Positions 1 to 55,050 of a stretch of 61,331 nt of DNA are shown one piece after another. The stretch covers positions 1-61,331 of the forward strand of contig QPGO01000311.1 in the NCBI GenBank assembly GCA_008632985.1. Direction: 5' to 3'. The notes under the pieces were generated by a model. The model saw only the letters and a list, made by a program, of their open reading frames with translations, made no database searches and was not told the DNA's origin. Made by a program: the position numbers and the translations under genes. This DNA comes from Psammoneis japonica. Taxonomy: Eukaryota. Position 1 is the first letter of the stretch; each line of letters begins with the position of its first letter.

Positions 1-73
1 CCATGACCAAAGCTTCTGGCCCAATTTTCCCATCCTTGTCATTGACTCCTGCAACAGTTGTGGACTGCATTTC

Positions 74-2579
74 TCAACGTGTGAGTGATTTGATGCAGGC
101 TCCAATGCCATCAACCTCTCCTTTGCCATGTCCAGGTGCTCCAATGGCACGGTCAAACACAATGTTGCACTTGTGCGCAAAGACAGACAACAAGTGCAGT
201 GCCAAAGCACATTGGCATTGTTTGGCACAACCATCAGTGTGATCCCAAATCACAAGCCACACCTCACACAGGCTGTGGTTTTTTAACCAGGTGACAAACT
301 TTTCCAAGTGAGCATTGGTGGTGGTGGCATCTTGCTTGGAAGAGTCAGAGAGATGCGCATGATGTGTTTTCTGAAGCTCGTTGTCAACCATTGCATCGCA
401 AACTCTTCCTTCAATTGACAATGTTTGGTTGTTGCCACAATGGTCACCCTGAACTTGGTTGTTGAACTCTGCCTTCTGACACTCAGAGTGGTCATGAGAC
501 ATGAACAGGCTGTTGGGTGTTGACTCAAATGCTTTGCGACGCATTTCCATGCAATGATTTTTCCCAAGAATGACCACGTGGGGAAGGTGGCAGTGGAGCT
601 TCTTTAAACTTGGAATGCAGTGCTCTTTCACAAAGACACCGACTGGTTTTCGGAACCTTGTCAACAAGGTCCTACGTTTCACCTTTGCATCCTTGTTCCC
701 ATCTGGATCTGCCTCACAAAACAGGACATGCTTCCATGTGCACACCATGCTTGGAACAACTTTTTACAGTCAAGTGACATTGAAACAAAACTTGGGGCAC
801 ACTGGGACTTTCATTCTGTTCCAACAATGGCATTGGATGGGATGGGCAATGCTCACATTCACCCAAAATGCATTTCCAATGAGGATGATCCTGACCATTG
901 ACATTGCCACAAATGATGGTTGCAACTGCATCTCGGGCTTTAGGATGAAGGTGATGGCCATTGGGGCCAAACGCTTCCTCTTGACAGACACGCATTGTTT
1001 CCTCCAATTTGCCAAAGGCACTGTCACAGTTCTCCAAGTTCTCAGGATCCTCACTCACAAGCTTCAACCGATTTTGCTCCACCTCCATCTCTTTTAAAAG
1101 CTTCCTTCGAAACCTGTTCAGTGCATCTTGTAGAAAATTGGCGTTGGTGCAATCGCTGCATTGACACATGCTGCATTGACTTGCATTCATTTTTCGACAC
1201 TGCTTGGGAATCAAAAATCGAAACATCATGTCACTGATGAGGGTCTTGCCATTGGCATCACGTGCATCTTCGAATCCGCCAACAGACACAGGCTTCAACA
1301 TGTCATTGCACAGCTCACGTGTGGACACATTGCGCAACCATTTGTTCACTCGTTTCTTGTTTCCATCTTCATCTTTAATGAGAATCATGTCTCATGTGTT
1401 GGGAGACTGCACTGTGTCAGGATGATTTGACAACCAGTGCACAAATGCCTTTCAGATCTCAGGGGAAACTTTGTGAGGACGCTGACAGGGTTGCACTGAA
1501 GACCACATGACATCGTCAGTGTTTGAAATCAATGCCTCTCTGGCAATCTTTCCCTTCTTCATTTGGCGACAAACAGTGCTCCGTTTCAGGCCAAGTGCCT
1601 TGGCACAGTCATGGGAAGACAATTTTTCCTCTTCAGCAGATTTTTCTGGTGAACCGGAGATTCCAGTTGCCAGAGCATGGACAAACGATTTTTTGTCGTC
1701 GGTGAGGTGTTGACCATTGCTGGTGTCATTGGCACGTGCCCACATTTTGCCCAACTGCTTGGTGATTTGCAAGGCTGCAGAATTTGTTTTCGGCAATGTC
1801 AAATTACAAGCCTGAAGAAATGGGGCCATTTTGGGAAAATGCAAAGCATGCACAAACGCACAGATTTGTTGTTCTTGAGTGGCAGCGCAAGACAACACTC
1901 CTTCTCTTGCTTTGACCGCTGCATGACAAAGTGCCTGTTGGGGATCTTTGTGGGTTGCTTTGAATGCATGAGGATTAAAAGTGGGGCAACCTTGGGAGGC
2001 GGTGAGGTTGACAGCAGTTCGGTTGGCCGAAGCGACAGAGGGAGTGACGGTGGCATTGTCAGAGTTGGAGTTGGAGGGAGTGGCGGCCGCTCCTGCAGTG
2101 TGCATTTGGGAGGGGCCTGGCTGTCTTGGCAAGGACAACCCTGGACAATGAGTGGGGTGTTCCTTGGAGGTGTTCAGGTTGAAAGCAGCCAGGTCGGTGG
2201 GAGCAACGGAGGGAGTGACGGTGGCATTGTCAGAGTCAGGGTTGGAGGGAGTGGCGGCTGCTCCTGCAGTGTGCATTTGGGAGGGGCCTGGCAGTCTTGG
2301 CAAGGACGACACTGGACAATGAGTGAGGTGTTCTGTGGAGGGGTTTGGGTTGAAAGCAGCCAGGTCAGTGGGAGCAATGGAGGGAGTGACGGAGGCAGCA
2401 GAGCTCAGGTTGTTCGGGTTGGAGGGAGTGGCTGCAGCTGCTTCAGCTGCTGCAACGACATGGGCGGAGACCATGGAGTGTGTTTCAAGTTCACGACGAG
2501 ACTTCTTGTTTTTGCTGTTGCCAGTCCCTGACTTGTGTCGACAGCCAACTCCATTTTGCTTCTTCCTCTTGTTGCCCAT
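74..2579 (-). pseudogene. Fragmented transposase (ORFs 1452-2579, 714-1388, 74-748)
   Basis: Motifs DHTDGCAKQCQC and DRAIGAPGHGKGEVDGIG resemble the DGCxxQY...HGKGxxDGxG core of eukaryotic DDE transposases. A Cys-rich segment (KCILGECEHC) is present. The reading frame is broken and expected Tyr residues appear as Cys/His. Confidence 0.7.
2040..2392. repeat. 171-bp in-frame tandem repeat (two full units plus the start of a third) in the transposase N-terminal region
   Basis: GGGAGTGACGG recurs at 2040, 2211 and 2382; the peptide repeat TPSVAPTDLAAFN...PGPSQMHTAGAAATPSN is visible in ORF 1452-2579. Confidence 0.95.
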
Positions 2580-3236
2580 GATGTGCTGGAAATTTGATTA
2601 AAAGTGTGCATCGAGAGGGCTGGTGGATGAGATGGATGGCAAGTCGAGAGGACACATTTTTTTGGCATGCTCAATCAAATTAACTGCACCGTGTCTGTAG
2701 AAATGAGGCATGTTCGGACGTCAGTTGAGTTGAAGAAGACCAAACACACGAGCTCCGAAAAATGAAAAAGTGAGTGATCACGAGCATTTTTCACGCAGAA
2801 TGGGACACCAGCCGAAAATCACATTTAGCACAATTGAGTCCTTCATTTTTGATCATTTCGAAAATCAAAAGGTGAGTGCACACCCAAAACACATGTAAAG
2901 TGTACACTTGCCCTTCGATTTGGCAAAAAACGGATTTTGAAAAAGTCATTTGCACCAAACCTAAAAATGGGCCAACGATGGGAATCGATCCCACGTGGAG
3001 CACCTGGAGCTGGAACAGGCCTGCTTGAACACACCTGGCATGCTTTTGTTCTCACAAATGCAAAAAACAACGAGTCTTTGGCTTGACAAAACAGGGAATG
3101 TGGGGAAATTTTGCAGAAGAGCACATGCAGAAATGTGTGCGTGCGACATGCATGACAAAAAATGTTCTCACAGCACATGCCAGCAAGCTCCTGCCTGGGG
3201 CTGGAGAGCAGTGCATGCAATGTGCGGCAGGGTGAT

Positions 3237-3269
3237 NNNNNNNNNNNNNNNNNNNNNNNNNNNNNNNNN
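3237..3269. other. Assembly gap (N run) next to a poly-C tract
   Basis: Ns in sequence. Confidence 1.
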
Positions 3270-5861
3270 CCCCCCCCCCAGCCCATTTCAAGTGCAATCA
3301 TCATCGGTGAGCAAAAGCTGCATGACAAACAACCACAACAAAACAACTTGAAACTGCTTCTCAAAAGACATTGAAAGTTGAAAGCCATCAAACACCACCA
3401 TGACAGACAGTCCCTTTGCAACAGAGAGGGGAGCAGGCTGCACTGGTCTGTTCATCAAAGCACTCCTTTTCTTTCTTCAACAGAGCCAAGTGAAAGCAAT
3501 GATGAGCAACCCAGATGGAAATGGCGACAGACCACCACTGACAAGAAAAGCTCTGACATGATCATTGTCAACTGCAATGACAACCCCAACACCAGCAGCA
3601 GCAACTGCAAATTCGTGTGAGCACTCAACAGTGATGGCAGTGGCAGCAGCATTGTGCTTCACTCCCAGACACAGTGACATGCAAGAGTGGGTGGATTTCT
3701 GCTCACACATCAAAGCTGCACCACCCAAGCATGTCAACAAATCTTTGGCTCACATGAGAAAAGTGGCCAGCACAATTCTTGAATGGTTGCATCTGGAATC
3801 ACAGAGCAATGATGGTTCCAGCAGCGGTCCTTGTGCACGGAATTGCTTCAAAGGTCTTCAACAGGCTGGCATGGCTTTTGTTGTCAATGAAGACACTCTG
3901 GATTGCTTTGATGCATCATGTGAAAAATGCAGGAGTTGGGTTGCCTGTGGTGTGCTCAGAAAAAACTGCATGGACAACCGTGGAGAGATTGTCATCCCTG
4001 GGAAACACATTTGGTGGGACCTCCATCAGTTTGTTTGGAAAGGAGGTGATGCTGTTTTGTCACCTGGCCATTGGAGCACAAGCACCAGCAAGGAGACATG
4101 TTGACAATTTCTCCCAATCACCAAGATCTGTGGGATGAACATGATGGCTCCTGCACAATGTTTCTCAGAATCCCGCACCCAGCCAATTCTGCAGCTCCAA
4201 GCAGATTGTTCCATGGCTTGCACATTTGTGGTCAATTTTTTTATGATCCACTGCCATCAAGCCATTCACCCAGAGGTGGCCCCACTTTTGAACACCTGGC
4301 CCAGTGTTGCAGGTGCAGCATGCAGCGTCCAAGAAAGCAACAAGACTCCCATGTTGGCAAAATTGGCTCAACTCATGCATCCAACAAAACTGGGTGCTCA
4401 TGGCAGATCCATTGGAAATGGCAAAGGAAGTTTGCCTGGCTGCCAACATGTGGCTTTTTTCTCTGATGACAATGAGATGGAGACAAAGACACAGCACATT
4501 TTGTGCTCAACCTTGGGTGCTGTCTGAGTCACAAGATTGCCCCCAAGCCAAAATGCAAGATCACATTTGAGGATTTTGGGTTTTCTTTCAAGGATGTCCT
4601 GTGTGGTCTCTTGAAAAAAAGAAACACTGGGATCAATGATGTGTTCCTTCCAGATGGAATCAATGTTGGAAGTCACTCAAATCCCAAAACTGTCTGTGAT
4701 TTGGTGAAGCACCAATGGGAACATGGAGCTCTGTGCTGTTGAATCCATGTGCACAAGGGTCACAACAAAATGGACTGATGTGTCAAAGGGCCAAAAATGC
4801 AGTTCACAAACAATTTTCCCTGCATCACCACACTTGGTGGTTCCCTCACTGGGTGCAAAAGCAGCAAGGGGGGCTTTTCTTTCTTGTGCAAGAGCCCTTT
4901 TGAGCGCAGCCACTCAAGAACTTCAGCCTCGAGTTGCTGAGAAAGATGAGTTGACATGGTGTTTGTGTTGCATGGCAAATGATGATGCAATCAAGATGCC
5001 CAATGGGACCATCTTTGACATGAATCCAGAAGATGTCTCATTGCTGCTGGAGGACTTGAGTGCACTTTCTGGGGGTTTCCCCCCGTGCCCCCACCACTTC
5101 ACATGAGGAATGCCAGAAGGAGGTGGAAATCCAAGAATTTTTCAAAGCCCTTTTGATGCCCAACTGGGAACCTGGGCAGGCTCATCACTTCCAATGCAGC
5201 AATCCTGAGTGGGCTCATTGCTCAGAAAGCACCCACGGGAATGGAAACAGCTCTCCACGGTGATGTGCAGACAACACCAGCAAATGCAAAGTGATCAAGG
5301 TTGTTGATGCCGCTGCATGTGAAGGTGAAGGAATCAAAGTTGAGTGTGAGTCCAAGGGTGGTGGAAAAGAATCAACATCAACCTGGTGTGGCAACTGAGC
5401 TGCCGTCATGGGGAGGGCACTCCCATCAGAGATTGACCTCTTGTGCCCACTGCGGTGACAGAGGGTGCGAGCATCCACCAGACACATTCACTGCAACCAT
5501 TGCATTGAGCTCTCATGCCCACTGTGTCGTCACTGTTCTGTGCAAATGCTCAATCTGCCGTGCTCTGCAACACAACTGTGCAAACTCAGATGGGACGCAC
5601 TGTGGTGTGATGTGCAAAAACAAGCGTCTCTCTTCAGAGAGGTCTGTCACGGATGAAGAGACACATTTCTCCATTGCTTTTGATCAACAAGGCAGAATGC
5701 AGGCTGGGAGCTGGGAACCCTGCTCTGCCTGCTTGTTCTGCCAGGTGCCGGTGCCGGCCGACACAGCCTCCACATCATGGTCTTGGTCTTGTCTCATGCA
5801 TCCAGCCTCCATCCATCCGCACGCACGACGCACGGAACACACCCCATCAAGACTCCTCCAG

Positions 5862-6092
5862 CCTCCAGCCAGCGCAGCGCAGCTGTTGGCTAAAAAATGT
5901 CTGCCCATCAGTGGTTTTGGGGGTTTTGCTTGTGCATTTTTCATTTTTACGTACGAAAAAGACGACTCTGTCTGTCCAGCGTTCACCGAATCTGGCAAAC
6001 CCCCCAAACGCACAGATTGACAGGCTCTTTCAGTACAAATTCTACGTACACAAGTTTCTCTGGCCAGCTGGCTGGAGAGGTCCCCCACATTG
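5862..6092. mobile_element. Degenerate tandem copy of the MITE at 6110-6322
   Basis: Aligns along its length with 6110-6322 (CCAGCCAGC...GGGGGTTTTGC...GTCCAGCGTTCACC...CAGCTGGCTGGAGA) but carries short insertions. Confidence 0.8.
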
Positions 6093-17602: not shown

Positions 17603-20600
17603 CTAATGTGCAAGAAGGCCGACCTTCCGGACCGCTCCCCATTCAGAATAGTAATTCCTGGCCTGCTCTTCGTAGTATGCTGAGTCATCTAGAAGTTGCA
17701 ATTCTGAGAGATAGGTGGCATATCGCTCTGTTGCCAGTGCAGCATCCTGAACGAATCCGCCTCTCACAGCAGTTTTGATAGCTTTCTCATAGGATTCACG
17801 AGTCTTGGTTTCGTTGCTGCGCAGGGCCGTGTCTTCGGCCTCCAACAAGAGAACCAAATGGACCAGATTGCACCCGCCCTTGCCGACCCAATCACGTAAT
17901 GTTGCTTTGACTTTTCTGGCGGCTCTAGCGTACTTGCTTTGGCCCGTGGATTTCGCTGCGGCGTATAGACACAACCCTCTTCCGAACGGTTCAAACCCAA
18001 ATAAGAATCCAGGATAGGTTCTGGTCACTGCATCGCCCATTTCGAGCGCAATGTCAGCTCCCTGTCGGTAGTCTCTCATGTAGGCCATCAAGTGGCAAGT
18101 GTGAAGCTGCAATATCAGTTTGTGTGTTGGATACTTTTGTACATCAACCTCTGGATGAGAATCACGTTTGCCCAAAGGAACAATACCTCTTCCCAAAATA
18201 TTCGCATTCCAACACAATAGAAATGTAGGTTCAGACCTTCCAGCTGCCTGATGTAATTACAGAGGTCTTGTTCTACACTATCCAACGGGCTTCCTGAAAG
18301 AAAGTCACAAAGTATCCCCTGCCAAATTGCAACGCAGGCTCCTTCCTTGTTCCCCGAAAGCATTCCAAGACGATAGGATTCCAAGAAAATGCCGTGACAA
18401 CTTCTCAACGGCTTTGTCCAACAAAGCACAGTGCTGCACGCTTTGTGGAGTGTGCTGCATCTCGTGTAATTCGAATGAAGGCGCTCTTGAATGCACATTG
18501 CCTGCTCTGCGAGTTTTGTTGCCGTTTCCCAATCGCCGTTCTCATACATTAGTATGTTTGAAAAAGAACTAACGGCTGAAGCAGTGAATTCCGTCAACCC
18601 GTACAGTTTGGTCCAGCGAATACAACGGCAATAGAACAAGGCATAGAGCGCTTTGTTCTTGAGATTAAAGAGAAATGAAGCAGCTCGAACAATCAAAGTA
18701 ATCGCTTCTCGTTTCTGCGGATCATCCATGAATGGCAAATTGCTTATTTCCTCAGTAGTGAGCATATAGGATTTCAATGTTTCCTTCAGGTAGCTCCTCA
18801 CTTTGAGCTGTTGCACTGCTCTGTTTTTAGGAAACCTGCAACCCAGACGATCAAGAATAGATAACGCTTCGTCTACTGCCTCCTTGTAATGTCCATCCGA
18901 GAACAGTCGTTCAATTTCAATGTGCTGGACGCGTAGCTTGTCAAGGGTAGAGAGTTCTCCCTGTTGTATGACTTGTTGACAGTAAGTTTCTGATATCTCT
19001 CGGTTCCCCAAACTTTCTGCTGCCTCTGCTCCGATCGTAAACAATTTGACCGCGAGAGTGGGATACTTTCTCCAAATCGCGGACATGTCATTCTTTTCCT
19101 GCAATGCCTTGAGCCCCATCTCAACAAACTTTGCCGCTGTCCCGTAAGCCGCCAGGGCCTTTGCCTTGTCCGCTGCCTGATAATCGAGGAATGCGATTTC
19201 TACTGCGAACGATTCGTCAGCATCCTGTGTTCTTTGGTTAAGTAGGTCGGCAATCACGAAAAGCATGTCGTCAATCATCTCAGATGATAGAAATTGGTAG
19301 AGGCACTTTCCAATCGTGAATTGAAAGGACCGAACATGATCTTGCGGTAAGAGAGAGATGGCCGCTTCACGAACTTTATCATGTACAAATCTGAAGGAAC
19401 CGCCTGACGCAAACGGCTCTAAAAAGGACTCGTCCGAAGCAACTTTCAAAACGATGTCCAGTTTGGCAGAATGTGATAGATGCGATGGAACTTCTTCTTC
19501 TTTGAACCATGGTATAGTTTTAATATCGAGGTTGTCAACAACAAGTCCCAAAGTGTCGCGATCAAACGAATTTCCTAGACAAGAAGCAACCTGCAGAGTT
19601 TGAAGAAGCTCACCCGTGCCGTTCTTCGTATGCGCAGAGGATCGAAAGGCACTCATTTTTGTTTGCAGCAGCGATATTACGTTCTCTGTGGCTGCGGTTT
19701 CTTCCTCAACTTTGGCAGTGTTCCATTTCCAACGGAAACGCCCGATATCGAATTCGAGCAAACCCTGTGCACGGAGGTTCTCCACAAAGAGAATCACAAA
19801 ATAAATGTTCCCGGCTGTCCGATGGTGAATTATTCGAGCCAATTCATCAACGGACTCCTCCTTGCTGCTGCTGTGGTCCGAAATAGACAAGACACGACAC
19901 AGAATTTCTCCAATCGCTTCCTCGGACAGACTTCCAACCGACATCTCAGTCATGACGAACGGCGCCGAGTCGCCGTCCGACAAGCCCCGTGCTTCCAACA
20001 GTAATTTTCTTAAAGGGTGCGTCTCGTCATCCAATGGTACCTCATCTGATCGATACGTCCCCAATAGAACAAGCTTGGAATGATAACTTTGTTCAGATAA
20101 AAGACGTTTCATCAAATCCAAAGTGGCAGAATCAGCCCATTGTAGGTCATCCACCAAGATAACGATTGGTCCAGAGACACGTAACGACAGTATCCTCTGC
20201 ACCGCGACAAATGCCTGCTCCAGTATTTCTTTGGACTGCGTGGTTTGTGATGATTCAGTTCTCATCAACGACTGCGTATCGACGGAGCCTACATCTCCAT
20301 CCTTCTCATCTTTCGTGCCCCCCTTTCTTTGAAAGAATGTGAAACGTCGGCGACTTTTTCTTTTCTCAGTTGCGTTGTCGGCGATACCAGTTGAGTCATT
20401 TGCAGATTTCGTTTCATCAACCACACCAAGACTGGTCGTAGAGTTCTGTTGCGCCTTTAGTGATGATTTCTCCTCTTCTTCTTTATCAACAGCAACAAGT
20501 TTGGGATCATGGTAGCGAGCAGGTCCAATTGAGGCGAGTCAATGATTTGCAACAACTCTTGCTTTAATGATCCGTCACTGCCGATGCGAGATTCTGGGCT

Positions 20601-38369: not shown

Positions 38370-39187
38370 TTATAGGACAGTTTCCTCCTCGATTGATGGC
38401 TCGATGATTCCAAGATACTTCTTGTATCCCGCAATGCGCCTCGAGAGCGTTTCACACTGACGGTGTACTACATCTCCCGCCTCCATGGAAAGATCAATGG
38501 CTTGTTGCTCAATCACCTTGGGCCATTTGTGCCAATGGTCATTATCCACGAAGAGCAGTGCTTGCATGGCATCCATGGTTTCCTCTTGCGGAATCGCTGC
38601 TACAAACTTAATGCCACGACGGATTTGAATGGCGTGACGAGCCGAAGCCAAGGTGGCTTCACGTTGCTTGGCGTCTTGAGCCGCCGCGGCCTTGAGGCGG
38701 GAAACCTTGTCGCGTTTTCCCAAGAGCTCACTGTGTTGGAATTGAACCTAAGGTGACAAATGAAAAGGACGTCGTTAGCACATCGACACAATCAAAAGCA
38801 AGAATTGTAATTCGAAAAAAGTGTAGAGATGGAAGCTTCTCTCACGGCATCTCCACGTAGAAACAAGCGCTAATTCTACGCACGCACCTCCTGAGACAAC
38901 CGTTCCACACGGGCTTGCAGCTCTGCAATCTCGTTGGGATTGGATTGCTGCTGCAGCTTTTGTAGAGCTTGTTGAATCGAAAGTGCGTTCTTTTCCATTG
39001 CATCTCGTTCTTGTTGAATCAAGGACAGACGTTCCATGGCGAGTTGTTTTTTGCGGTGCTCTTCATCGCGGTTGCGACGGAGATTGGCCAAAATGCCGTG
39101 GAGCTTTTCGACAATGTCCTCCTTTTGCTGAGACGTTGTCTGCGCAGTGGTGAGAGGAGCCGAACAGAGAACGCTGCTTGTCTTCAT
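38370..39187 (-). CDS. Uncharacterised coiled-coil protein; exons 39187-38888 and 38747-38370
   Basis: The intron GTGCGT...CCTTAG joins ORFs 38876-39235 and 38370-38723 in frame; heptad-like E/Q/L/K-rich sequence. Confidence 0.7.
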
Positions 39188-39244
39188 GGTTGCTTGCTTG
39201 TTGCTTTTGATGTTGTGAGCAACATCCAACAACACGAAGCGCCA

Positions 39245-39457
39245 TGTTGGGGGACGTCTTCGGAAGTGAGACTGTCGAAGAAAGTTGCGTAGAATTTGTG
39301 CTAAAACAGTCTGTCAATCAGTGCGATTGGGTGTTTGGGACCTCTGGACAGATCACACGTGTTTTCTTGTGCGTGCAAATTGCACTGGAAAAAACCCCAA
39401 ATGCACTGGCGATCAGACCGCCTTTGACGATCTCACTTCCAAAGACGCCCCCCAATG
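39245..39457. mobile_element. MITE related to 6110-6322, in opposite orientation
   Basis: TIR TGTTGGGGGACGTCTTCGGAAGTGAGA / TCTCACTTCCAAAGACGCCCCCCAATG; the interior aligns with the reverse complement of 6110-6322. Confidence 0.8.
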
Positions 39458-39599
39458 TGCGAACGAACGTAGAAGTGTCGTACGTGGAATTGTGCAGAAC
39501 TTGTGCAACGTCAAAAATTCAAACTCCTGGTGTTAATTTCATGTAGAATTGCACGCAAAAAATCCAGCACGCACCCTCACGATTACGAAACAGCGCCAA

Positions 39600-42480
39600 C
39601 AACCGCGACATCACCATGAGAATCAGCAACAACAGCATCTCGTCCAACTCAATGGGTTTGAACAGTTCCCTTTGGGATCAGACGCTGTCTGCATGATGAC
39701 AGGTGCATCACAAATGAAAGCGTTCCTCCAGTGGCAACAACAAACAACTGCTTTGCAACAAGAGCAAGAAGGAGCTTGATGCCCCAGCATGGCAGAACGC
39801 AGAACCGCAGCATGCCTGTCAACAGCAAGCGCCATGCCACCCCAACAAATGACAGTGCTGTCACACACAACAGTGCAGTGGCCCCAAAATCTCACGCGGA
39901 TCATGTGCGACAGCAGCACACCACGCTGAGACTCTGCTGCTTTGCAGCCAAAATCCTGTCACACACAACAGCCAGCGTGCATTTGCCAGAAGTGGCTCGT
40001 CCCAAACAGCAACACGATCCCAAGAAGGCAAAATCTGCTCAACAAGAAATGCAGGCCAGTGCCGCAGAAACGTTGTCCATCAAAGAAAACTTCTCAAACA
40101 ATCCCGTCGCTGGCAGCAACGGCACGCCGGAAGCTTGCTCTGCACTTGTCAATGATTCAGATCTGGATGCAAACTCTCTTGAGAATCACCATGATGACAA
40201 CAGCAAGGAGTTGTTCTGGCACTTTTGAACTCGCAAAACAACAACAAAAACAGCAATGTCTCTGTCGCTGTTGAGCAAGGAGGACAAAGACATGAACCTG
40301 GCAGAGTTGCAACAAGAATTGAAGTCCATGCAGTCGGCTCTGCAAGCAAGTCAAGACGAGAATGCATCACCGCAAGCCAAAAATGCACATCTTGTTGAAA
40401 TGTTCCTGTCAATGTCACAAAAGGAAAACAAGGTTCTTCACGAGCAGTGTCCGTCATGGCAAGACCAGTCAAATCGACACAAGCAAGAATTTGCAAGAAT
40501 GGCTCCAGAGCATGGAATTTCCATGGCAGAAACAACACCAACCACTGTTGTGCAGTCAGCAACTGATGCTGAGCCACTCACCATTGCCGCTGCCAAGATT
40601 GCTCCATCACCATGGTTGCACTGCAAAACTCCTCAAAAAGCACTCCAGCCACCAGACAACAATGTTGCTGCAAGCAAAACAAAAGATGGCACTGCAAAAC
40701 ATCCCCTTGTCTCATCCTTCATTTCACCTGTCCTCTTTCAGCCTGTGTGTTGTGTCATTTTTACGAGGTTTTGCATGGGAATTCAGAAAAATTTTGGTGG
40801 GGCTAAAGTCCCGGTGGGGCCAAAGTGGCATCTTTTGGATGCTGATCACTGACCACATCCACCCTTCTCCAACACTGCCCAGCCTTTCATCCAGTGTGCT
40901 TCTGCACAAAAGTCATCGCAACTGGCCCACTGAGAATGGACAGGTTTTTGGGGTCAGTGACATTTTCAGTTGCACTTGACATTGGGCATTGGAGTCAATT
41001 GTTGTTGTTGTTGAGCACAAAGCAAAATGGCTTTGCAGCAAAAAGTCTTCCAATCATCATGCTCAGTCTTTTCTCCATTTTGTGGTGACTTTCGGCACCA
41101 CTTAATTTGTCACACAGCAGCATTGCAATGAGAACGGTTGATCTGCCCCACTTGCAACAAAAACAATGATGAAAGCCTTTTAAAAAGAATCTGTGTTTTT
41201 CTCAACCCACACCATGAGCTTTGATCACAAGTGCGAGCATTGGTGGTGCGAGTGCGACAAGGCAGAACAATCGGAGAATGACTCTTTCTCGTGTGCAAGT
41301 GTCGATGATGACAAAAACAGCACTCAAGACAGCACCGAGTGCACAAATTTGCATGATGATGCCAATGAGTCAGAAGGAGAGGTTGGCTCCCCTCCTTAAA
41401 AAATTCCAACAACAACAGTTGCCCTGACATGGAGATTGCCACTGGCTGCTTCAACTGATTTGGAGGATGCAACAGACATGATGAACACAGACAATGACCA
41501 TTTGTGCAGAATTTTCTCCAGCATTGCTGCTGCCAGCACCACCAGCAATGGCACTGCCACCGTCCACACGAAGGATGGTGAAGGTTCTCAAACCCAGAAC
41601 AGGGCTGCCGATGGTGCCTTTGCTTGTGCCCCATTGGAGACTTGTCTCGGGAAAAGCACTGCTGGCAGCATGACAACTTTGTTGCTGATCTCCTGGAAGT
41701 CTGTGGAACAAAGCCTTTCAAAACCTTTTGTGCTGAACACAGTCTTGTGAGTCCTTCATTTCAGCTCAATCCCCACACTTGTGTGGGAAAAGCAGCCTCC
41801 TGTGATTGTTTTGCAAAAGCCTGCAAGAAATTGCCTGACTTGGCCTTGCCACAAGTTGCACTCCATGGAACTGATGAAAAGCATTTGGCAGACATTTTTA
41901 ACAGGACGGATTGGACTGAAAGAAATGCAGGAGGCAAGCCTGTGGAAGAATGGGGGAATGCTTTTCTGCAGATCCAAGCATCTCAACTGCCCACAGCAGA
42001 AACACATGCTCCTGGAGTGGATGAAAAGATGTTGGTCCATTTGGTCATTCATCTACTTTCCTGTCCTGCTTCCAAAACAAAAGATCCCGCTGTCCCCAGC
42101 TGCCCACCACCACATCCATCATGACGCTGTGCCTGCAATGGAGCATCAGATGCCACTTGGAGTGTTGTCATGCCGCCGTGTCGAAGCAGATGCTTTGAGG
42201 TGTGCCAACAACATGCACGCCAAACTCAAGGATCTTACGGCAAAGATTCTTCACATCGAGCACAGCAGGCCAGATCTTTCATGACGAGCTGTTCTTGGCC
42301 TCGGACATGTGCAAAAAGAATCAACAATGTTTGAGCAAAGTTTCCAAGGCGGATGTTGCTGCATTTCTTGCAAACCAAAACTGTGACGCCGACGTTGTCT
42401 CTTTCTGCTTTCCCGGACTGCCCGAGCCTCTTTTGGCTGCCAACGAAAATCAGATTGTCAACGTTGATGCACTCGAGAAA
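39600..42480. other. TpA-depleted domain 5 (pseudogene relics)
   Basis: TA is nearly absent and returns gradually after ~42480. Confidence 0.9.
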
Positions 42481-42558
42481 GATTTGTACCAGAGCAAGCT
42501 GGAACTTGCGCAACAACACAGTCGCAACCATCCGACAACGACTGATCGAGATGGTTGA
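41120..42558 (+). pseudogene. PARP catalytic-domain-like gene relic
   Basis: PQVALHGTDEKHLADIF, then after a frameshift GLD*KKCRRQACGRMGECFSADPSISTAHS...KMLVHLVI. This matches the PARP signature HGT...GLD...QAYG.GEYF...S..YS once TG/CA are reverted to TA or CG. Confidence 0.75.
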
Positions 42559-43093
42559 CCAAGTTTTAGCAGCAGAGGTACAGAGGTGCTCGGATTTGGG
42601 GGTTCTCGACTACCATCAGCTTTTCAATCCCCTTGATCCTGACTACATGGTTTTTCGTTCAAACTTCTAGCTCTATCCGCTCGTTCCCCTCAAAATTATG
42701 ATCGATTGTTGTTGTTTCGGTGTTGATTACTACGGCAAGGTATTCTACCATATAGCAAGCTTCTGCGAGGCGTTCCCACGCTTTTTCATCGCGGGGCCTT
42801 TATGCTTCACAACGATGCAACCGTACGAGTGTCCATTGATGACCTAATATAACGATGGACCTATTGATACTGTTGACGAACTGTAGAGTTGTGTAGTTTT
42901 GGCGTGGAGCTGATGCATCATACTGTTCATGATGCTTCCTGGTACCGATTTGGTTGATTGCTCTGCAACACCTCCTGCAACTTCACTTTCCAACAGACCT
43001 AATCATATATATTTGTAGAAAGCCAAGCCACGGTATTAGATGTAATGAATACAGAGGCAGTAGTGCGGCAGTAGACATTCTTTGGACAGCGCG

Positions 43094-44134
43094 TCATTCC
43101 GTTTTAGGGACGGCTGCGGCGGCTTTTACAGACTGAACGTGCCACTTTTCATGCTGATGGATGATGAAGGGTGACACACATGCCCTCATTTCATCGAGTC
43201 CACCCTCAAACACCCATAGTTTGAGTAGGCGTTGCGATAGGAAGGGGACTCCGTACAGACAGTAGCGCTCCGTCCGCGGATCGGCACCGTCTAACCACAC
43301 CCCTTTCGGTGACGCCATTTCGACAAAGTTGAACCAAGAGCTATGCTTGTGTTCAAAGGATGAGTCATGGAAGGAGGGCGAAGACAGTACTTTTGTGCTC
43401 ATTTCCGAAACGTTACTCAGTGTCCAACCTACTGGTTCGACTACCGGTACCGAGAGCTTGAACAGATGAACGCGTTTCTTCTTGCCCGTAGAATACCCAG
43501 ATGCAATGATCGTAGTGGTTTGCCAGTCATCGTGAAGTGATACAGATGGATCATATCCGATCAGACCCTTCAGCTGCGAAATATACAGCCTAGCCACCAT
43601 CACCTTTCGCACGCCATGGGTCTCTACAATGTCATACAATTCCTTGGCATTAACCTTCAACTGCCCACTTGGAAAAATGTTGTTGGCTCTGAGGATTTTG
43701 TCGAGTCCCTCATCATCTAGTGCGAGCGCTCGATAGACAGTCATACGACCCAGGTATTTGGCAAAGTTCCGAAAGGCAATTTTTGCCGAAGCAATTTCAC
43801 CCACATCGGCAACTGTGTTGCACCAATCCAAAAACTTCCGCCATCGTGTTGCCACGCCTGGCCAGTTTAAGGCACCCAAAAGATTGCTTAGGCCCGCTTT
43901 CTCAAAAGAGTCTATCATGAGTGCTGCCTCTTCCCCACCATAGTCACGCGTGAGCGATTCCAGGCTGGTGGAGAGAGGTCGACGCTGGATCATCCATTCG
44001 ATCTCCTGATCGGATACCTCATTGTCATTTTCATTATCGGAGTCTGAGTTACTTCTTTCTTGGACCACTCTCACGCTCCTGGGAACCTGTAACTTGTCCT
44101 CATTCCGGCTGTGTCCAAACGATCTGTTTCCCAT
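43094..44134 (-). CDS. Uncharacterised protein with possible R-S-E ADP-ribosyltransferase-like motifs
   Basis: Intact ORF of normal composition (the ORF track extends it to 44266). TVYRALAL, PSVSLH, HLFKLSVP and TERY occur in the order expected for an ART fold. Confidence 0.5.
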   Translation of the reverse strand: MGNRSFGHSRNEDKLQVPRSVRVVQERSNSDSDNENDNEVSDQEIEWMIQRRPLSTSLESLTRDYGGEEAALMIDSFEKAGLSNLLGALNWPGVATRWRKFLDWCNTVADVGEIASAKIAFRNFAKYLGRMTVYRALALDDEGLDKILRANNIFPSGQLKVNAKELYDIVETHGVRKVMVARLYISQLKGLIGYDPSVSLHDDWQTTTIIASGYSTGKKKRVHLFKLSVPVVEPVGWTLSNVSEMSTKVLSSPSFHDSSFEHKHSSWFNFVEMASPKGVWLDGADPRTERYCLYGVPFLSQRLLKLWVFEGGLDEMRACVSPFIIHQHEKWHVQSVKAAAAVPKTE

Positions 44135-45316
44135 GATAGAGTTTAACGATGCTGTTGTTTCGAGACAGCATTGTAGGGATCTATGTATGTTGTGACGATT
44201 TCCAGATTTATGCGATTCCGTCGTCCACGACTTGAGCACGGCGGATCTGTTACGCGCATCGCGCATCGAACGTGACTGGCGCTCGTGGATATCTGAAAAC
44301 GCTCATTCTCGAGAACCCCCCCATCCATTTTCGAGAATGCCTCTCTTCCATTTTCGAAAATGTGGAGCTTGCGCTCCCGAGCAATCCGGTCCACACAAAG
44401 TTTGTGTCGAACACCATGAACAATGCATCGTCTCAATCACATGGTGCGTTGTTCGAACGTGATGCACTTCATCGCATCAAGTTGAAAGCGGCCAGGCGAG
44501 CCTGACACGAACAACTTCCAAGATGCTGACACCAGAACAACTCCATCACATCGAATGCCTCCTCTCTCATTGTGAGTCTGGCAGTGCTCAGCTGGACTCA
44601 ACATGAAAGAATGGAGATGCAAGCACCGTGAATGGAGCCAAACATCAAAAAAATGTTTCATGACAGATTGATGATGTGTCGGAAAGAAGCCAAGGTTCTC
44701 CCGCTTTGACATCATGTTGCAAGCTCATGAGACCAAAGGTTGACACCGCCATTTTGCTGGTGCAACATTCTCCCATTGACATCATCATTCTGCCAGCACA
44801 ACATTCTCCCATTTGTCAGAAAATCACTTGTTGGAGTGACAATCAGAAGTGCAAAAAAAATGGGTCATGGCGAGGCAACGCAGAACCTCAGTTCTGATCT
44901 CTTGTGTTGCGCCAGGCAACAGGCCAACACATTTCTCACAGCAATTTGGCAATTCAGGATCCACCCACAGAGATGAAGTGAACTGTGGTTGAAAAGTGCG
45001 TGTGATTTGAGACAAAATAAAAAAAATGGCATGGCTTCTTCGGCACCACATTTGCGTGTGCGTGGACGAGACACTCAGTCGGCATGTTGCTTGCTCGCAG
45101 TGCTTGTGTTTGTGCACAAACCAAAGTCTGCAAAGCGATCATGTGGCTGATGGTGTGTTCCAGCTTTTCCAATTGCTTTGTCCTGAGATGACTCTCCCTT
45201 TGCTCTTTTGTGACATTTCTTGATGAGTTCTTGGGAAAGCTTCCAGTCAATCTGATGCATGGGATGTTGTGGTTTGAACAAATTCAGAACCATGACAAAG
45301 CAACTGGAATGATTTC

Positions 45317-45730
45317 GGTCAATGTCATGCAATGACCAGGCAGCAGAGGTCATGTCTGATCCAAGCTCCAAAGCCAGGTTGAGCACACTGTCTTGGCAGT
45401 GAGGAACGTCAGCTCTGCATGGCAATGACACCTGCAACGGTGTGCTTGGAACACATTTCGGTCAATGTCATGCAATGGCCAGGCAGCAGATGTCATGTCT
45501 GACCCAAGCTCCAAAGCCAGCACAACCACATTGTCTTGGCAGTGAGGAATGTCAGCTCTGCAAGACAATGAAACCTGCAACAGCACTTGGAGCACATTTT
45601 GGTCAATGTCACGCGATGACCAGGCGGCAGCGGAGGTCATGTCTGACCCAAGCTCCAAAACACCAGGTTGACCACATTGTCTTGGCAGTGAGGTCAGCTC
45701 TGCAAGGCAATGAAACCTGCAATGGCACTC
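45317..45730. repeat. ~142-bp tandem repeat, three copies
   Basis: GGTCAATGTCA..CAGGCAGCAG..GTCATGTCTGA.CCAAGCTCCAAA..GTCTTGGCAGTGAGG starts at 45317, 45460 and 45601. Confidence 0.92.
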
Positions 45731-46897
45731 AGGACACAACATGACAGTGGACAACATGTGTTTGTCATTGCTGCATGGACAGCCAACCAATGTTGTCAAT
45801 CAGCTTTTCCTTGGAGGAATTGTTGTCGAAGCAGGTTGCATTCACCTCTTCAAAAAATTGAAGCAACATCAAACATGTTTTTTTCCTTGAAAGCCTTTTC
45901 CTTCAACAACACCTTTGACAAACACACTTTGTCAAGACATGTCTTGACAGAGCATGTGAAAGCATTGCAACTGGGCATTTCAGCTGGGGCACTGGCAGAA
46001 GACAAAGATGACTCTGCAAGCTCGCCAGAGCAATCTGACAAAGGGGCAGAGGTTGAGGCCCTGCTGCAAGACCTGAGACATGGAAGACCCAGTGCAGTGG
46101 GACACGGGACTGCAACTGTGGCAATTCCTGCAAGCATGGTTGCTTCATTCTTGAGATGACCGTGAGTGGTTGTGCACATGAGGAGATGGGGACACCATGA
46201 GGGGGCATTCTTCTCTGGGTGTCCTGGAGAAAGAAGCTCTGGTCTTGTGACCAACAGGGCCAGAGCTTCTGGAGTGCAGTCATTCCAAACAAGAACTTGT
46301 GCTGCCAGAAGACACCGGGCAATGTCATGACTGGGAACGTCCATGCTGATGAGACCCAGTGACTGATCTTGCTCTTGCTGACAACCAGACACAGACCAAC
46401 AACTGTGCCAACTCCGTCTGAGATGCCAAGAGCTGGAGCAAGATCAGTGCCTTGACCTAGACTGAGAACAAGAGGAAGAGCAAGACCGATGCCTTGACAT
46501 CAACCAAGGGCAACAGGGATGTGTGCAGCAGCAAGACTGTGACCAGGACCTTGACTGGGACCTTGACCTGGAATTCAAGCAAGAAGCATGTGACAAAGAA
46601 CGTGACCTGGGTGTGCTGCAACAAAGTTGTGAACAACCCCTGGTGAGACAACTGCCGGCAGAGGGAGCAGGAGAAGCTTCCCTGGAAGACATGCTCTTTG
46701 TTGGGCAGCCCTTGCCCCTCGAATGCTGCGTTTGCTTCTTGTTGAATGACGACACAGAAGGCAGGGCGTGCACAGGCACCCACTGCACTGGCGCTGGTGC
46801 TGAGAGCAGCGCACATTGCAAAAACGTCACAGGATGTGCAGGCTGCAAGGGCATGGACAGAGCACAACATTGTGCCTGCATCAATGGTGATGGAGTG

Positions 46898-47185
46898 ACA
46901 GGCTGCAATGACGTGGAAGGAGCACAATGATTTGGCTGCAACAATCACAACGGAGCACCAGGCTGCAACAAGGTGGAAGGAGCACAATGTTGTGACTGCA
47001 ATGACGTGGAAGGAGCACAATGATTTGGCTGCAACAATGTCAATGGAGAGGCAGGCTGCAATGATGTGGAAGGAGCACAATGATTTGGCTGCAACAACGG
47101 CGATGGAGCAGCAGGCTGCAACAAGGCAGAAGGAGCACAATGATTGAGCTGCAACAATGGCAACAGAGCGGCAGGCTGCAACAGC
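46898..47185. repeat. Short coding-type tandem repeat (GGCTGCAA..GGAAGGAGCACAATGATTTGGCTGCAACAA; units of ~33-57 bp)
   Basis: About five recurrences of GAAGGAGCACAATG; reads GCNDVEGAQ*FGCNN in the frame of ORF 46523-46930. Confidence 0.85.
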
Positions 47186-49819
47186 ATGGACGGAGCAAGA
47201 TTGGATGGATTTCTTGATGGTGGAAATTGACCACTTGGATGAGAAAGGGAGGGGGACTGATCACTGCTTTGCAGAAGAGCCACTGTGCCACAATGCACAA
47301 CGTGATTCTTGAGGGACCAAGCAATTGGGTGATCTCCAAGAATGTCCACAATGTCCACAAGGAAGTGAACAATGAGGACAATGCATGGGAGTGTCTTTGT
47401 GGCAAAGAGGAGGACTTGTCTGTTGACTTGAGCAATGTGAGGAAGAGTGTGGTGAGATGTTTTGACCTCTTGTCCAAGGAGGAGCACCGCCATTGCCTCT
47501 CTCACAAGATGCATGGTGCAAGAAAGGGGGTGGATGAACAAATGAGGATGCTGTTGACACAGATGGGTGGTGCTGACAACAAGGCTGGCAATGGAGTGAG
47601 AAAACAAATGCAACCAAATGCAGCTGATGTTGCTTTCTCATTTGCACTTGATTCTCAGATGTGGGCATGACCATTGATTCTCAAAAAACAATGGCAACAC
47701 TGCTTTTAAAAATGACTGTTTTGAGGGATGCTGATTTTTAAGAATCCACATGTTTGAAATTCCATGCAACAGATCCTCAAAAATGTTGAACAAATGCTGA
47801 CACACTGTCTTGAGTGTTGACCATTGTCTGCCATTGGCAAATGGCCCACTGTTGCCACAAGCAAAAAACCGGTCTGTCCTCCACCTTTTGGCATCTGTGC
47901 AACAGTTGATTTTGTCTCCAAAATCGATTGGTTCTTCACTGTGCAGTGCTTCTTACATCTTCTGACATTGTCAATTGATGTGCTCCTGTGCCTGTGTTCA
48001 CCAGGTTCATGGTTCTAAACACAGTTGCTGCCATCACAAGAAGGGCCTTTTTCACTCCAAGAGGACAGACTGGTTGTCAGTGGAATTCTGCATGGCAATG
48101 TGCTGAGAAATTTACACAGTTTGTTTTTGCATCGGATGTCAAATGCCTCGCCATTGTCTCTCACATGAACGGCATCATGGCAAGTTCATGACACACACTC
48201 CAATCAAACAATGTGGGTGCACAAGCTCTCATTCATTGTTGTTTTGCCTTGTTGCTCGCATTCTGCATGCAGGCATTTGTCACGAATTAGAAATGCACAA
48301 CGTAAAAATCATCCATCAATGAGGACAATTGATGACAAAAAATCTGTGCAAATTCTCAAACCGCAGATCTTTTTAGAAAATGACGATGTGCCATCTTTGG
48401 CCCCCAATTGTGCCATGATGCAACACTCTTTTATCCTGCTGTTTTCACAAACAGATCTTTGTTGACCTTCTGACCGATGCCACAGCAGATGGGTTTTGCA
48501 TGTGAAATGATGGGAAGCCACTCTTAGAGTGGTTTTGTGTGCAGTTTTTTGCTTGTAGAGTCAATCACAAAATGAGACCCGGCACAAACAATTGAGACCT
48601 GCTTGGGGCATTGTGCAAAAATGTGCAGAATTTTCTGTTGGCCAAAAAAAGTCATGAGGTGGTGTTTGAAACAGCACAACAAGAGCACTCCATTGCTGCC
48701 ATTTTTGCCCACCCAGAAAAATTCTTGGCCCTTGCCGAGCACATCTGATCCAGCACTGAAATCACACACATTTCTGCATGGGTCTTAAATCACCACACCT
48801 GCCTGTCAACCTTGGCTTGTTGGACATTTTGGTTCATGCACTGAAACTCAAGAACTCTGCACAGATTTGAAAAAAGGAGAGGATTTTTTTGTGACGAGTT
48901 CAATGAGTTGTTTCATGTCCAGGCTTGATTTCATGAAATGCTGCACAGACATTGTGGCATCTGCACAGACCCAGATCTTAGGTGGGTCTCAGTGTGTGAT
49001 TGACTCTGACCCAGTGGTCCCAGTGGTGCACACAAGAACTCACAATTTTAGAACCTGTTGATGCTGTTCAACACATTTCTTCTTTGTTGTCCAATTCTCA
49101 GCCATTGCAGCAGCATTTGTTTGCTTCATCAGAGCCAATGCACTGTGATGCACAGACACCTGAAATGGGCATTGCAAATGGCACAATGGCGTCATTGCGA
49201 TTGATCAATTTTTGTGGCAAGCACAATGTTGGTCCCATGGTTGCTTGCAAAATTGCTGACTTCTTTGCATGTGCACCCATTTGTGAACATGAACTGAGAG
49301 TGCTCTTGTGAACCAGGGCAGTGATCCGTGGGATGCATTGTTTGGATGTGGCATGTTTGGCCCCACAGGAATGTAATGTGTTGGCTGAGCATGCAAATGT
49401 TTGAGTGATTGTGTGATGACAAACATCATTGGATGCATGACACGTCAATGAGAGATGGATGTCTGAATGCACTTGTCATCAGTTTTGCATTGATTGGTCA
49501 AGTGTCACCGAAAAACTCTACTTCTGACATCATGACGTTTTTTTGCTAAATGGCTCGAAATCTACTCAATCTACTTCTGCTTACCTGAAAACCACTTGTT
49601 AGTCAGAAAACGAGCTCCTGCTGCAAGAAAATCTGGGATGGTCATGCGCGACATCGCGCGAATAAGACTCTATGCAGAACAGGTTCTTCGTGCTTTTTCC
49701 ACCTTTGGGGGTGACGTGCAGACTGCACTAAGATTACCTGTAGAAATCCAGAAGACTTCAGTAAAAAATCTACTTCATTTTTTTCATAAAATGGCCAAAA
49801 TCTACTTTACCCACCCGTC

Positions 49820-51807
<1,988 letters not shown>

Positions 51808-52014
51808 TCATTGAACACACGCATCCTACCTCTGTCCACCAGCGCCACATCCACCACGTCCGGAAGTGCGGTAAGAACCACAGCTGTGCCAAGAGAGTCG
51901 AATGAAGAGTCCTCCGTACAGTGTGTTCCATAATCCGCCGGACTTGGCTACCAACAAGCTGGAATTTTAGAATGATGAATTGTAGAGTAATTACGTGGAC
52001 TGAAACCAACTGGT

Positions 52015-53730: not shown

Positions 53731-53959
53731 TTTACAAGAATTTCAAGGCAGTGTGATACAGACAGTAACCAGAAGAATCGTGTTGAGCGTCCTTTTCCAA
53801 GAACAGCAGCTACTAGTCTATGGTAGAGAGAGTGTGTGTGTGTATGAGGTCAAAAGGTACAATGTCATACAAAGATCGCGTTGCTGTTGCTCATGGGCCG
53901 TAGACCGCAGTACCAGTTCTACGTTGAGTGGACTGAGTGGATCAAAGATTTTCAGTGGC

Positions 53960-55050
53960 GACCATTTTACCGGTGTCAACATGTCGAGCATCACAAGGCT
54001 AGGCAGGAAAGAGGTGTTGAAGTGTCTCAAGCACAAGCGGGGGAAGCAGGTCTCTTGGGAGGTCAAACTGCACCTCACACCAACATGTGTCCCCGAAGAA
54101 GATGTCATCAGATTTCCTCTGAACCACAAGTTGGAGGGTGTCAGATTTTAAATTGTGACATCTGCGGACATGATGGTGTGAGATTGTGCAGTTTGACTGT
54201 CGCAAGAATCGATGTCCCCTCTTGATGATGTTTCGATGCATGCATGGTTTGCTGGTCTTGCAAAGAGATGTCATCATCATCCAGCTTCTAGCCTGTTCCA
54301 GCTCCAGGTGATGCACACAGGCTCGACTCCCATCGCTGGCCCATTTTTGCATTCAGCACAACAAACTCCTTCAAAATCAGGTTTTTGCCAAATCAAAGGG
54401 TGAGTGCACACTTTGCATGTGTTTTCTGGTGTGCACTCACCTTTCGACGTTCGAAAAGATCAAAATTGAAGAAGTTCGCTGCGCTGAACTGGCGCAGATG
54501 ATCGGCCTCTCGCATGATGGATTTCTCATCACCTGGGGCTGGAACAGGCCTTCTCCAAGTTGCGCTTTGTGTCAAGTCCCGGGAAAATCCGCTCATGAGC
54601 GGAAATTTCGTCGCCAGCTTTGGCTGCGGATGAGTGTGGTGGTTGTGCAGAAAACGAGGAAAGCTCTTGGAATTTTGGAGAAATTGTCCAAATCAAATTG
54701 ACAATGAGCAAAGTGAGCTCCAAGTTGGGTGTTGTTTGTGAAATGGGGGGTGAGGCAATGGCTGCCTCGTGAAGGTTCTGACTGCTGGGTGCTCCCAAGC
54801 AAGGCTGCCGGGGTTCACGGCAGCAAGCAGATGGCGCTCCACCCTCAGCAGCGGCGCTTGGTGTGATGCACAACAAATTCAAGACACGCTCTAGCCTGGG
54901 GTGTGGGGCTGCGGGGCGTGTTACACTCGGAGCGCGGTAAATTTGCCAGCCAATGAACACATGAATGATCGCCAAAGGCCTCAGTTGAAGCACGCGCACA
55001 TCATTTTGACTTTGGTCCTTCATAATCGGACAACACAACATGCTGTCAAA
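53960..55050. other. TpA-depleted domain 7
   Basis: Few TA between the M17 peptidase and SERF genes; contains a MITE. Confidence 0.8.
54290..54550. mobile_element. Non-autonomous derivative (MITE) of the transposon at 1-3021
   Basis: TIR (A)GCCTGTTCCAGCTCCAGGTGATG / CATCACCTGGGGCTGGAACAGGCC with a 4-bp flanking duplication TTCT; the interior aligns with the reverse complement of ~2830-3021. Confidence 0.88.

Follow-up and report, generated by a model that had tools for sequence, protein, structure and literature searches.

The question raised by contig QPGO01000311.1 of Psammoneis japonica (61,331 nt; this whole stretch is referred to as the window) is why kilobase-long parts of it hold almost no TpA (TA) dinucleotides while the genes between them hold ordinary numbers. 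An earlier note on this DNA had proposed that transposons and dead genes in these parts had been mutated from TpA to TpG and CpA (TG and CA). The analysis presented here leads us to think that mobile DNA was very probably inserted and then subjected to DNA-level, TpA-specific A:T→G:C transitions, with decay of CpG (CG) over nearly the same intervals. The process is of a kind already described, in 2026, for Bigelowiella natans; what distinguishes the window is that the recognisable targets are transposons, that the loss is close to saturation, that CpG decay coincides with it, and that TTAA and TTAR sites are relatively spared.

Sliding windows of 1 kb alternated between long stretches with observed/expected (o/e) ratios of 0.00–0.15 for TA, 0.07–0.6 for CG and 1.6–2.0 for TG/CA, and stretches with TA at 0.5–0.8 and CG at about 1. 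Segment borders were placed by a two-state hidden Markov model (HMM) on the fraction TA/(TA+TG+CA), and a second, independent segmentation was obtained from an HMM on CG/(CG+TG+CA). The TA model returned eight depleted segments, which equal seven blocks once the pair around 49.5–49.8 kb is joined; sliding windows and HMM thereby agree on the seven kilobase-scale domains, nearly free of TA, low in CG and rich in TG/CA, that had been described by the earlier note. Together with a weak ninth segment of 394 bp, the depleted DNA amounts to 22,446 bp, or 36.6% of the window. TA makes up 83 of the 4806 TA+TG+CA sites (1.7%) in the eight segments, against about 22% outside. The first 600 bases contain a single TA, at position 284, as had been counted by eye, and the segment at 2–5942 contains 19, where the lowest count among 200 mononucleotide shuffles was 350.

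The CG-based HMM recovered nearly the same domains, none of which is assigned to a strand, with CG o/e values ranging from 0.20 to 0.63. Domain 1 (2–5942; TA at 19 of 1308 sites; CG o/e 0.32; CG segment 2–5746) is depleted in both dinucleotides and runs past the window start. It is followed by domain 2 (21267–22303; 5 of 208 sites; CG o/e 0.22; CG segment 21211–22176), domain 3 (31799–33285; 6 of 342 sites; CG o/e 0.32; CG segment 31813–33279), which is multi-copy by depth, and domain 4 (35091–36891; CG segment 34919–35874), which includes a run of N at 35915–36074 and whose right edge moved to 36407 under slightly different settings. Domain 5 (38881–42560; 17 of 786 sites) has its CG depletion limited to 39609–42171. 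Domains 6a (44294–49506; 17 of 1218 sites; CG o/e 0.29) and 6b (49812–51822; 3 of 466 sites; CG o/e 0.20) fall in one CG segment at 44512–51818, and domain 7 (54004–54885; 2 of 175 sites) has its CG segment at 53989–54438. Positions 54291–54471 of domain 7 are 81% identical to 2841–3020 of domain 1 on the opposite strand. Borders of TA loss are sharp on a scale of tens of bp; the adjoining open reading frames (ORFs) are often 30–270 bp away.

Within the domains only TA and CG drop and only TG and CA rise. The pooled o/e values are 0.07 for TA (n=108), 0.38 for CG (n=518), 1.74 for TG (n=2399) and 1.68 for CA (n=2413), compared with 0.60, 0.96, 1.18 and 1.15 in the rest of the window, values that agree with the earlier description of the intervening genes as normal in TA and CG. 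As a share of all dinucleotides, the four together come to 0.2415 in the domains and 0.2403 in the rest of the window, a near-equality predicted by pure conversion of TA and CG to TG/CA. G+C content is 0.49 in the domains versus 0.475 outside, AA/TT stand at 1.21/1.25 versus 1.13, and AG/CT are unchanged.

To judge the assembled bases, we used contigs built by others from a public DNA run (X1; depth about 60; 93% of sampled words present), which is possibly from the same sample as the assembly and so excludes mis-assembly and chimerism without being an independent biological replicate. These contigs match the window, TA-poor sequence included, at a depth of 58–67 with nearly no differences; one of 7506 nt covers 39428–46932 with four other letters. 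Contigs also cross the domain boundaries at 31799, 33285, 35091, 42560 and 44294, so that reads both reproduce the TA-poor sequence and bridge its borders. Summed contig depth reaches thousands, compared with about 60, at 31668–33001, 39005–39671 and 47676–50343, and the rest of the TA-poor DNA is for the most part single-copy at a likeness of at least 80%. A further run, X2, appears RNA-like since it includes a spliced contig; it leaves most TA-poor bins uncovered, which is no evidence of silence.

The direction of change could be read in a dead gene in domain 1. Searches by tblastn with homologous proteins identified a frameshifted relic of a mobile-element ORF of about 1100 aa at positions 5–2117 of the minus strand (ORF pieces 77–763, 717–1391 and 1455–2597), the element of which continues beyond the window start. 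Its intact relatives, from metagenomes, are 36–43% identical. Tyrosine is encoded only by TAY, and the relic has no Tyr in 835 aa, while Cys and His together make up 8–14%; the median Tyr content of 150 representatives of the family is 2.95%. Tyr occupies 14 alignment columns in two or more of four intact homologs; there the relic shows six His, four Cys, two Leu, one Gln, one Phe and no Tyr. Conserved Phe, Trp, His and Cys residues were retained at 32 of 54 columns, a significant difference from the Tyr columns (Fisher P=3.5e-5). The related metagenome loci have ordinary TA o/e values (0.34–0.80) in 25 of 26 cases.

The family to which this relic belongs is large (2832 representative clusters with a cut-off of E≤1e-3, of which 245 pass E≤1e-30) and consists of proteins of about 1100–1350 aa (P0004–P0007 and P0144–P0293) with a conserved motif region DxTDGCAKQY...GAPGHGKxxVDG. 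Sequence searches gave no Pfam or PDB match for the family, and no relative was present in the viral contig collection searched. An AlphaFold 2 (AF2) model of the family core (pLDDT 87.5) was RNase H-like and aligned with the catalytic cores of retroviral integrases at VIA-align Z scores of 10–11.3 (root-mean-square deviation about 3 Å over 140–155 residues); Foldseek with the same model also listed IstA, Hermes and SETMAR transposases at E values of about 1e-3. Invariant or nearly invariant Asp/Glu columns of the family alignment are E128 and D228, together with D101, D150, D187 and D234. On account of the integrase-like fold predicted for the core, we read the relic as a DDE/integrase-type mobile-element gene.

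The remaining metagenome locus, L016 (1567 bp, from a sediment assembly), has a TA o/e of 0.08 and a CG o/e of 0.11 over 256–1567, compared with 0.53 and 0.77 over its first 255 bp, the sharp change coinciding with the beginning of the homologous ORF (258). Of the seven TA that survive, five are in NTAA. As L016 shares only a 48-bp nucleotide match with the window copy and about 30% protein identity with the family, it is only distantly related to that copy and represents another locus or another genome with the same footprint.

Two copies of one miniature inverted-repeat transposable element (MITE), one TA-normal and one TA-poor, could be compared. The TA-normal copy lies outside the domains at 24844–25311 (plus strand), has CCC...GGG termini and is flanked by TTAA on both sides (24840–24843 and 25312–25315); it contains 37 TA, with o/e values of 0.90 for TA and 1.04 for CG. 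The TA-poor copy lies in domain 3 at 32164–32591 (plus strand), has two TA (o/e 0.07), and is flanked by TTAA on the left and TCAA on the right. A TTAA target-site duplication together with inverted-repeat CCC...GGG termini marks what we take to be a piggyBac-like element. When the copies were aligned, the 37 TA of the normal copy read CA at 21 positions, TG at ten and CG at one in the TA-poor copy, with two kept and three otherwise changed; the 47 TG/CA of the normal copy include none that is TA in the TA-poor one. The copies differ by A>G or T>C at 45 positions, 33 of which fall in TA, and nine of the 18 CG of the normal copy are CA/TG in the TA-poor one. Several copies of a palindrome of about 30 nt (GAGCAAATCTCCACC GGTGGAGATTTGCTC) are also present in this MITE, near its ends and in the middle; their TA-free arms are kept between both copies, and the TA-rich spacer is rewritten.

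Other copies of the repeats point the same way. When the X1 contigs were aligned with the window, 566 places differed, and among the 40 best-supported of these, 12 high-copy places were informative. At eight (39300, 39333, 39356, 48030, 48032, 48082, 48090 and 48102) the window has TG or CA and most other copies have TA; at the other four (48036, 48054, 48092 and 48104) the other copies have CG. TA is the ancestral state. The polarised excess of TA→TG/CA changes that the earlier note had anticipated is thus present in the MITE pair (31 of 37 sites) and at the eight high-depth places, and the opposite finding, TA-free consensuses or active copies, did not appear as far as the comparison applies: intact homologs, the sister MITE and most of the other copies hold TA.

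The change took place in situ, on DNA and after insertion. A target-site duplication is identical when it is made, hence the TCAA to the right of the TA-poor MITE arose after that element had inserted. A column with CA in one paralog and TG in the other implies an ancestral TA or CG that was resolved separately in each copy after duplication; four paralog pairs within the domains showed 13 such double differences in 888 aligned bp, and two other pairs, one of them at a domain edge, showed none in 305 bp. TG and CA are nearly equal in number in the domains (2399 and 2413), CA and TG outcomes form no same-strand runs in their order along the MITE pair (runs test P=0.48), and each domain contains several unrelated elements with common sharp borders.

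How the loss of TA relates to that of CG was examined from the two segmentations. In each domain the depletion of TA goes further than that of CG, and TA-depleted margins with normal CG occur beside genes at 38881–39609, 42171–42560, 44294–44512 and 54438–54885, which means that TA loss does not simply follow CpG decay. The TA and CG processes share targets but are separable, as proposed in the earlier note, which had placed TpA loss on top of CpG decay with both converging on TG/CA; the polarised changes and the dinucleotide balance agree with that account. TA loss may extend into promoter-proximal DNA, and the TA process seems to be the faster of the two. The loss of CpG is probably a separate process linked to methylation. 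The methylation of diatom transposons is described in the consulted part of a published study (PMC9998398), and together with the CpG decay this suggests that the domains may be methylated heterochromatin. 'Silenced chromatin' and 'genome defence', terms that had been applied to this DNA, are tentative readings, for which the window offers the coincidence of CpG-decay and TA-loss domains. A separate observation concerns 32010, 32060, 32634 and 33129, in one TA-poor domain, where assembly and single-copy X1 contigs differ by CpG→CpA/TpG; these four differences may be allelic or represent ongoing CpG decay.

The TA that survive are not a random sample. Expressed relative to the rest of the window and symmetrised over strands, the density of surviving TA is 0.54 for TTAA and 0.39 for TTAG/CTAA, and at most 0.10 in all other contexts, with ATAG/CTAT at 0. 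TTAA, TTAG and CTAA thus provide 49 of the 108 survivors in the domains versus 170 of 1606 TA outside (P=3e-18); the two TA kept in the MITE pair are one TTAA and one TTAG. A rule for the outcome (TAY→TGY, RTA→RCA), which reached P=0.003 and 0.013 in the MITE pair, was dropped on being contradicted at the Tyr codons of the relic, and a tetranucleotide mass balance for TG versus CA outcomes was not used, as its sums did not close for several contexts. The 'YAC' preference of TadA, described for the engineered ABE8e A48E in the portion of the source consulted (PMC13109818), was given no weight without a consistent 3'-pyrimidine rule here.

Several other explanations of the pattern have to be set against these results. 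A sequencing or assembly artefact, or a chimera with foreign DNA, is vanishingly improbable: nothing speaks for it beyond the caveat that X1 may be the assembly's own sample, the separately built contigs give the same sequence at gene-like depth (about 58–67) across five boundaries, and the pattern follows element borders and codon positions. The DNA might instead have been TA-free and CG-poor on arrival, by insertion or horizontal acquisition, a view that could appeal to the large part of the TA-poor DNA in which no ancestor is identifiable and to the TA-poor composition of L016. It is very unlikely, and we consider it already largely refuted, in that the intact relatives of the relic hold Tyr and normal TA where the relic has His or Cys, a sister MITE with a TA o/e of 0.90 lies 7 kb away, most other copies have TA at the listed sites, and a flanking target-site TTAA has become TCAA. 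Selection against TA or UA, through nucleases, stop codons or a restriction-like system, would accord with the mildly low TA seen everywhere (o/e 0.60 in genes); yet the sequences affected are frameshifted, non-coding relics, the depletion is about ten times stronger than in genes, and the loss of TA is exactly balanced by the gain of TG/CA, and we regard selection in place of biased mutation as extremely unlikely.

Two mutational alternatives remain to be considered, and both are highly unlikely. One is editing at the level of RNA, in which an ADAR-like A-to-I activity with a preference for a 5' U would act on double-stranded transposon transcripts that were then reverse transcribed and reinserted. 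The 5'-T preference seen here does resemble the neighbour preference of ADAR, according to the available part of a preprint on B. natans (10.64898/2026.01.13.699255). However, the affected elements include MITEs bearing terminal inverted repeats and a DDE-type element, and whole domains of unrelated elements are hit up to sharp common borders. The mutated flanking target site, the paralogs (tandem copies among them) that resolved the same sites differently after duplication, the near-equality of TG and CA, the lack of same-strand runs and the shared borders together argue against editing followed by retrotransposition, and mutations in the B. natans lines, as far as that part of the preprint describes them, occur in place (10.64898/2026.01.13.699255). 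The other alternative, put forward as a candidate by the earlier note, is that a Pol eta-like polymerase (WA→WG) carries out error-prone patch repair, set off by the G:T mismatches that deamination of 5-methylcytosine (5mC) leaves. TA and CG are indeed lost over nearly the same intervals, but AA/TT are not depleted and AG/CT are unchanged, leaving the second half of the WA motif untouched, and this candidate is therefore disfavoured; the TA-depleted margins have normal CG, and TA loss exceeds CG loss everywhere.

Insertion followed by TpA-specific hypermutation thus accounts best for the window. The change has a direction, occurred in situ, is specific to dinucleotides, confined to domains and biased by context, and the proposal that mobile or dead DNA within delimited domains was mutated from TpA to TpG/CpA agrees with the Tyr columns of the relic, the MITE pair, the other copies and the mass balance. 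Under this reading, the insertions would have been MITEs, a DDE/integrase-like element and further repeats, of which many can no longer be recognised; thereafter TpA-specific A:T→G:C transitions would have turned nearly every TA into TG or CA, with ordinary CpG→TpG/CpA decay over nearly the same intervals, and the hypermutation would end within tens of bp of neighbouring genes. By analogy, it may be the regulated, enzyme-driven hypermutation of the B. natans lines, directed against DNA that is silenced or foreign; it would disable that DNA, since every Tyr codon and two stop codons out of three would be lost. A candidate ADAT2/TadA-like enzyme could deaminate adenine in 5'-TA-3' on either strand, and modification of thymine in TpA would be an alternative chemistry with the same footprint. 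We suggest tentatively, and with slightly less belief than disbelief, a TpA-specific DNA-editing system (an adenine deaminase or a thymine-modifying enzyme) common to at least two lineages of the stramenopile–alveolate–Rhizaria (SAR) group, namely a diatom-like stramenopile and a chlorarachniophyte. Such a system would be guided to silenced or foreign chromatin, independent of copy number and faster than CpG decay; it would spare TTAA/TTAR, erase Tyr codons as well as TAA and TAG stops in invading genes, and form a widespread protist counterpart of repeat-induced point mutation (RIP).

Certain points weigh against this account. Polarity is drawn from a single ORF relic, a single pair of MITE copies and 12 high-copy places among the 40 best-supported of 566, and the MITE pair by itself is compatible with a CA/TG→TA change in the 'normal' copy. 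The composition is that of one window. The outcome rule was not borne out at the Tyr codons of the relic, where five of six His outcomes follow a pyrimidine. 'Transposon' is an assumption for much of the TA-poor DNA, which is mostly single-copy at a likeness of at least 80% and without recognisable homology; the statement that every identifiable relic is a transposon or a dead gene could be checked only in part, on the DDE-like ORF, two MITEs and the multi-copy repeats. Lastly, CG is lost here, and the consulted part of the B. natans preprint reports no excess CpG mutation with its process (10.64898/2026.01.13.699255), which may reflect a different targeting logic.

Among the remaining contents of the domains is a second MITE, a high-copy element of 209 bp at 39247–39455 (no strand assigned) with 34-nt terminal inverted repeats (85%) and a summed depth in the thousands versus about 60; the hypermutated copy in the window lies in the TA-depleted, CG-normal margin at 38881–39609. 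Pfam gave no credible match for 20 ORFs or for the domains' 117 stop-to-stop frames (85 aa or longer); the sole match, CALCOCO1 (E=0.0035), was below the cut-off of the model and was rejected. Rfam and tRNA scans of the window returned no matches. A TA-normal island of 290 bp (49519–49808, no strand assigned; TA at 16 of 54 sites) interrupts the otherwise TA-free 7.5-kb block, and is bracketed by a perfect 12-nt inverted repeat (49526–49537 and 49816–49827) and by a longer one of 80%. The CG segmentation leaves it undivided from its block, and it may be a young insertion that came later than the hypermutation or escaped it.

The genes around the domains point, with moderate confidence, to a diatom-like host that is not B. 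natans, an assignment drawn from the scarcity of introns and from two named homologs. The best named match of the M17 peptidase is from Attheya sp. (62% identity over 43%) and that of the cyclin from Ditylum brightwellii (43% over 34%); no match of either protein exceeds 62% identity, although B. natans transcriptomes form part of the collection searched, and the named eukaryotic matches are those two diatoms only. One intron, of 110 nt with GT..AG ends, was found in about 6 kb of spliced X2 contigs; it lies at 34613–34722 (plus strand) in an alpha/beta-hydrolase gene (33327–34880), where the X2 contig is spliced and the DNA run X1 unspliced. A weak TA-poor stretch at 30330–30723 (394 bp; TA at 4 of 83 sites; CG o/e 0.73) lies in the 3' part of the cyclin ORF (30415–31446, minus strand) and may be due to chance, composition or leakage. 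Beside the high-copy MITE, in TA-depleted, CG-normal DNA, is a coiled-coil-like ORF of about 105 aa (38879–39240, minus strand) that is partly covered by RNA-like X2 contigs, one of which differs at many positions; either a live gene reached by spreading mutation or a family of paralogs may be involved. Adjoining domain 2 on the minus strand (18115–21041) are adjacent ORFs of 769 aa (AAA_16 end and TPR) and 194 aa (AAA_16 start), which resemble the two parts of a single STAND-type NTPase gene that an intron or a frameshift has divided.

Literature searches, for diatoms or elsewhere, found no earlier description of the process beyond the B. natans preprint, before which no targeted A:T→G:C hypermutation of DNA in eukaryotes was known. 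A second, distant organism, if true, would mean that the process is not peculiar to one alga or to viral insertions; it would also supply many natural before-and-after pairs for defining the exact sequence preference and make a comparative search for the responsible gene possible. The consequences for annotation are practical ones: as TAA and TAG stops are erased, long spurious ORFs arise in such domains, giving Tyr-free, Cys/His-rich pseudo-proteins, and since independently mutated copies diverge by 15–25%, the domains escape repeat detection.

The closest known system is that of B. natans, and the idea that the process was undescribed did not survive the comparison. Mettrop et al. (bioRxiv 10.64898/2026.01.13.699255), in the part of the preprint available to us, describe integrated viral DNA undergoing de novo hypermutation from TpA to TpG/CpA. 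Of 302 nuclear mutations in mutation-accumulation lines, 231 were located in two viral regions, an integrated nucleocytoplasmic large DNA virus (NCLDV) region and one of a virophage; A→G or T→C made up 230 of the 231, all such transitions being in TpA, and mutations arose at about 6e-7 per site and generation, a rate raised about 1000-fold in the region, in some lines only (10.64898/2026.01.13.699255). The same part of the text reports 124 TpA-depleted, CpA+TpG-enriched clusters in the genome and 324 TpA-poor coding sequences enriched in DDE and reverse-transcriptase domains, proposes an ADAT2-like adenine deaminase and makes no mention of diatoms (10.64898/2026.01.13.699255).

The window shares with that system the A→G/T→C change at TpA giving TpG/CpA, as seen at 31 of 37 sites of the MITE pair and in the His or Cys found at 10 of 14 Tyr columns, and the regional clusters with depleted TpA and enriched CpA+TpG, here far beyond chance (19 TA against a shuffle minimum of 350). 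It differs in several respects. Recognisable targets here are transposons, with no viral relative of the ORF family, whereas those in B. natans are viral insertions, and CpG decay occurs here over the same intervals (CG o/e 0.20–0.63). B. natans genes are intron-rich, whereas the present host is intron-poor, with long uninterrupted ORFs of up to 1021 aa. Depletion of TA is near saturation here (o/e about 0.07), compared with 0.45 given for the NCLDV region in the consulted portion of the preprint, and the relative sparing of TTAA and TTAG/CTAA is not discussed there (10.64898/2026.01.13.699255).

Decay of CpG by deamination of 5mC explains the loss of CG and part of the gain of TG/CA over the same domains; unlike the process seen here, it cannot remove TA, and the loss of TA is the more complete and reaches margins where CG is normal. 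Deaminase-type hypermutation of invaders with a fixed neighbour preference is also familiar from AID/APOBEC and ADAR, which act on viruses and retroelements in animals. APOBEC, however, changes C and not A, and ADAR acts on RNA, whereas the window shows no strand-coordinated runs and has mutated DNA flanks. RIP of ascomycete fungi resembles the present process: it, too, hypermutates by transitions at particular dinucleotides, works domain by domain and inactivates mobile DNA where it lies, and there is some evidence that its effects reach gene borders. RIP makes TpA from CpA and enriches DNA in A+T, however, whereas in the window TpA gives way to CpA/TpG with no fall in G+C; and because much of the affected DNA is single-copy at a likeness of at least 80%, the dependence on repeats that marks RIP is not evident in the window.

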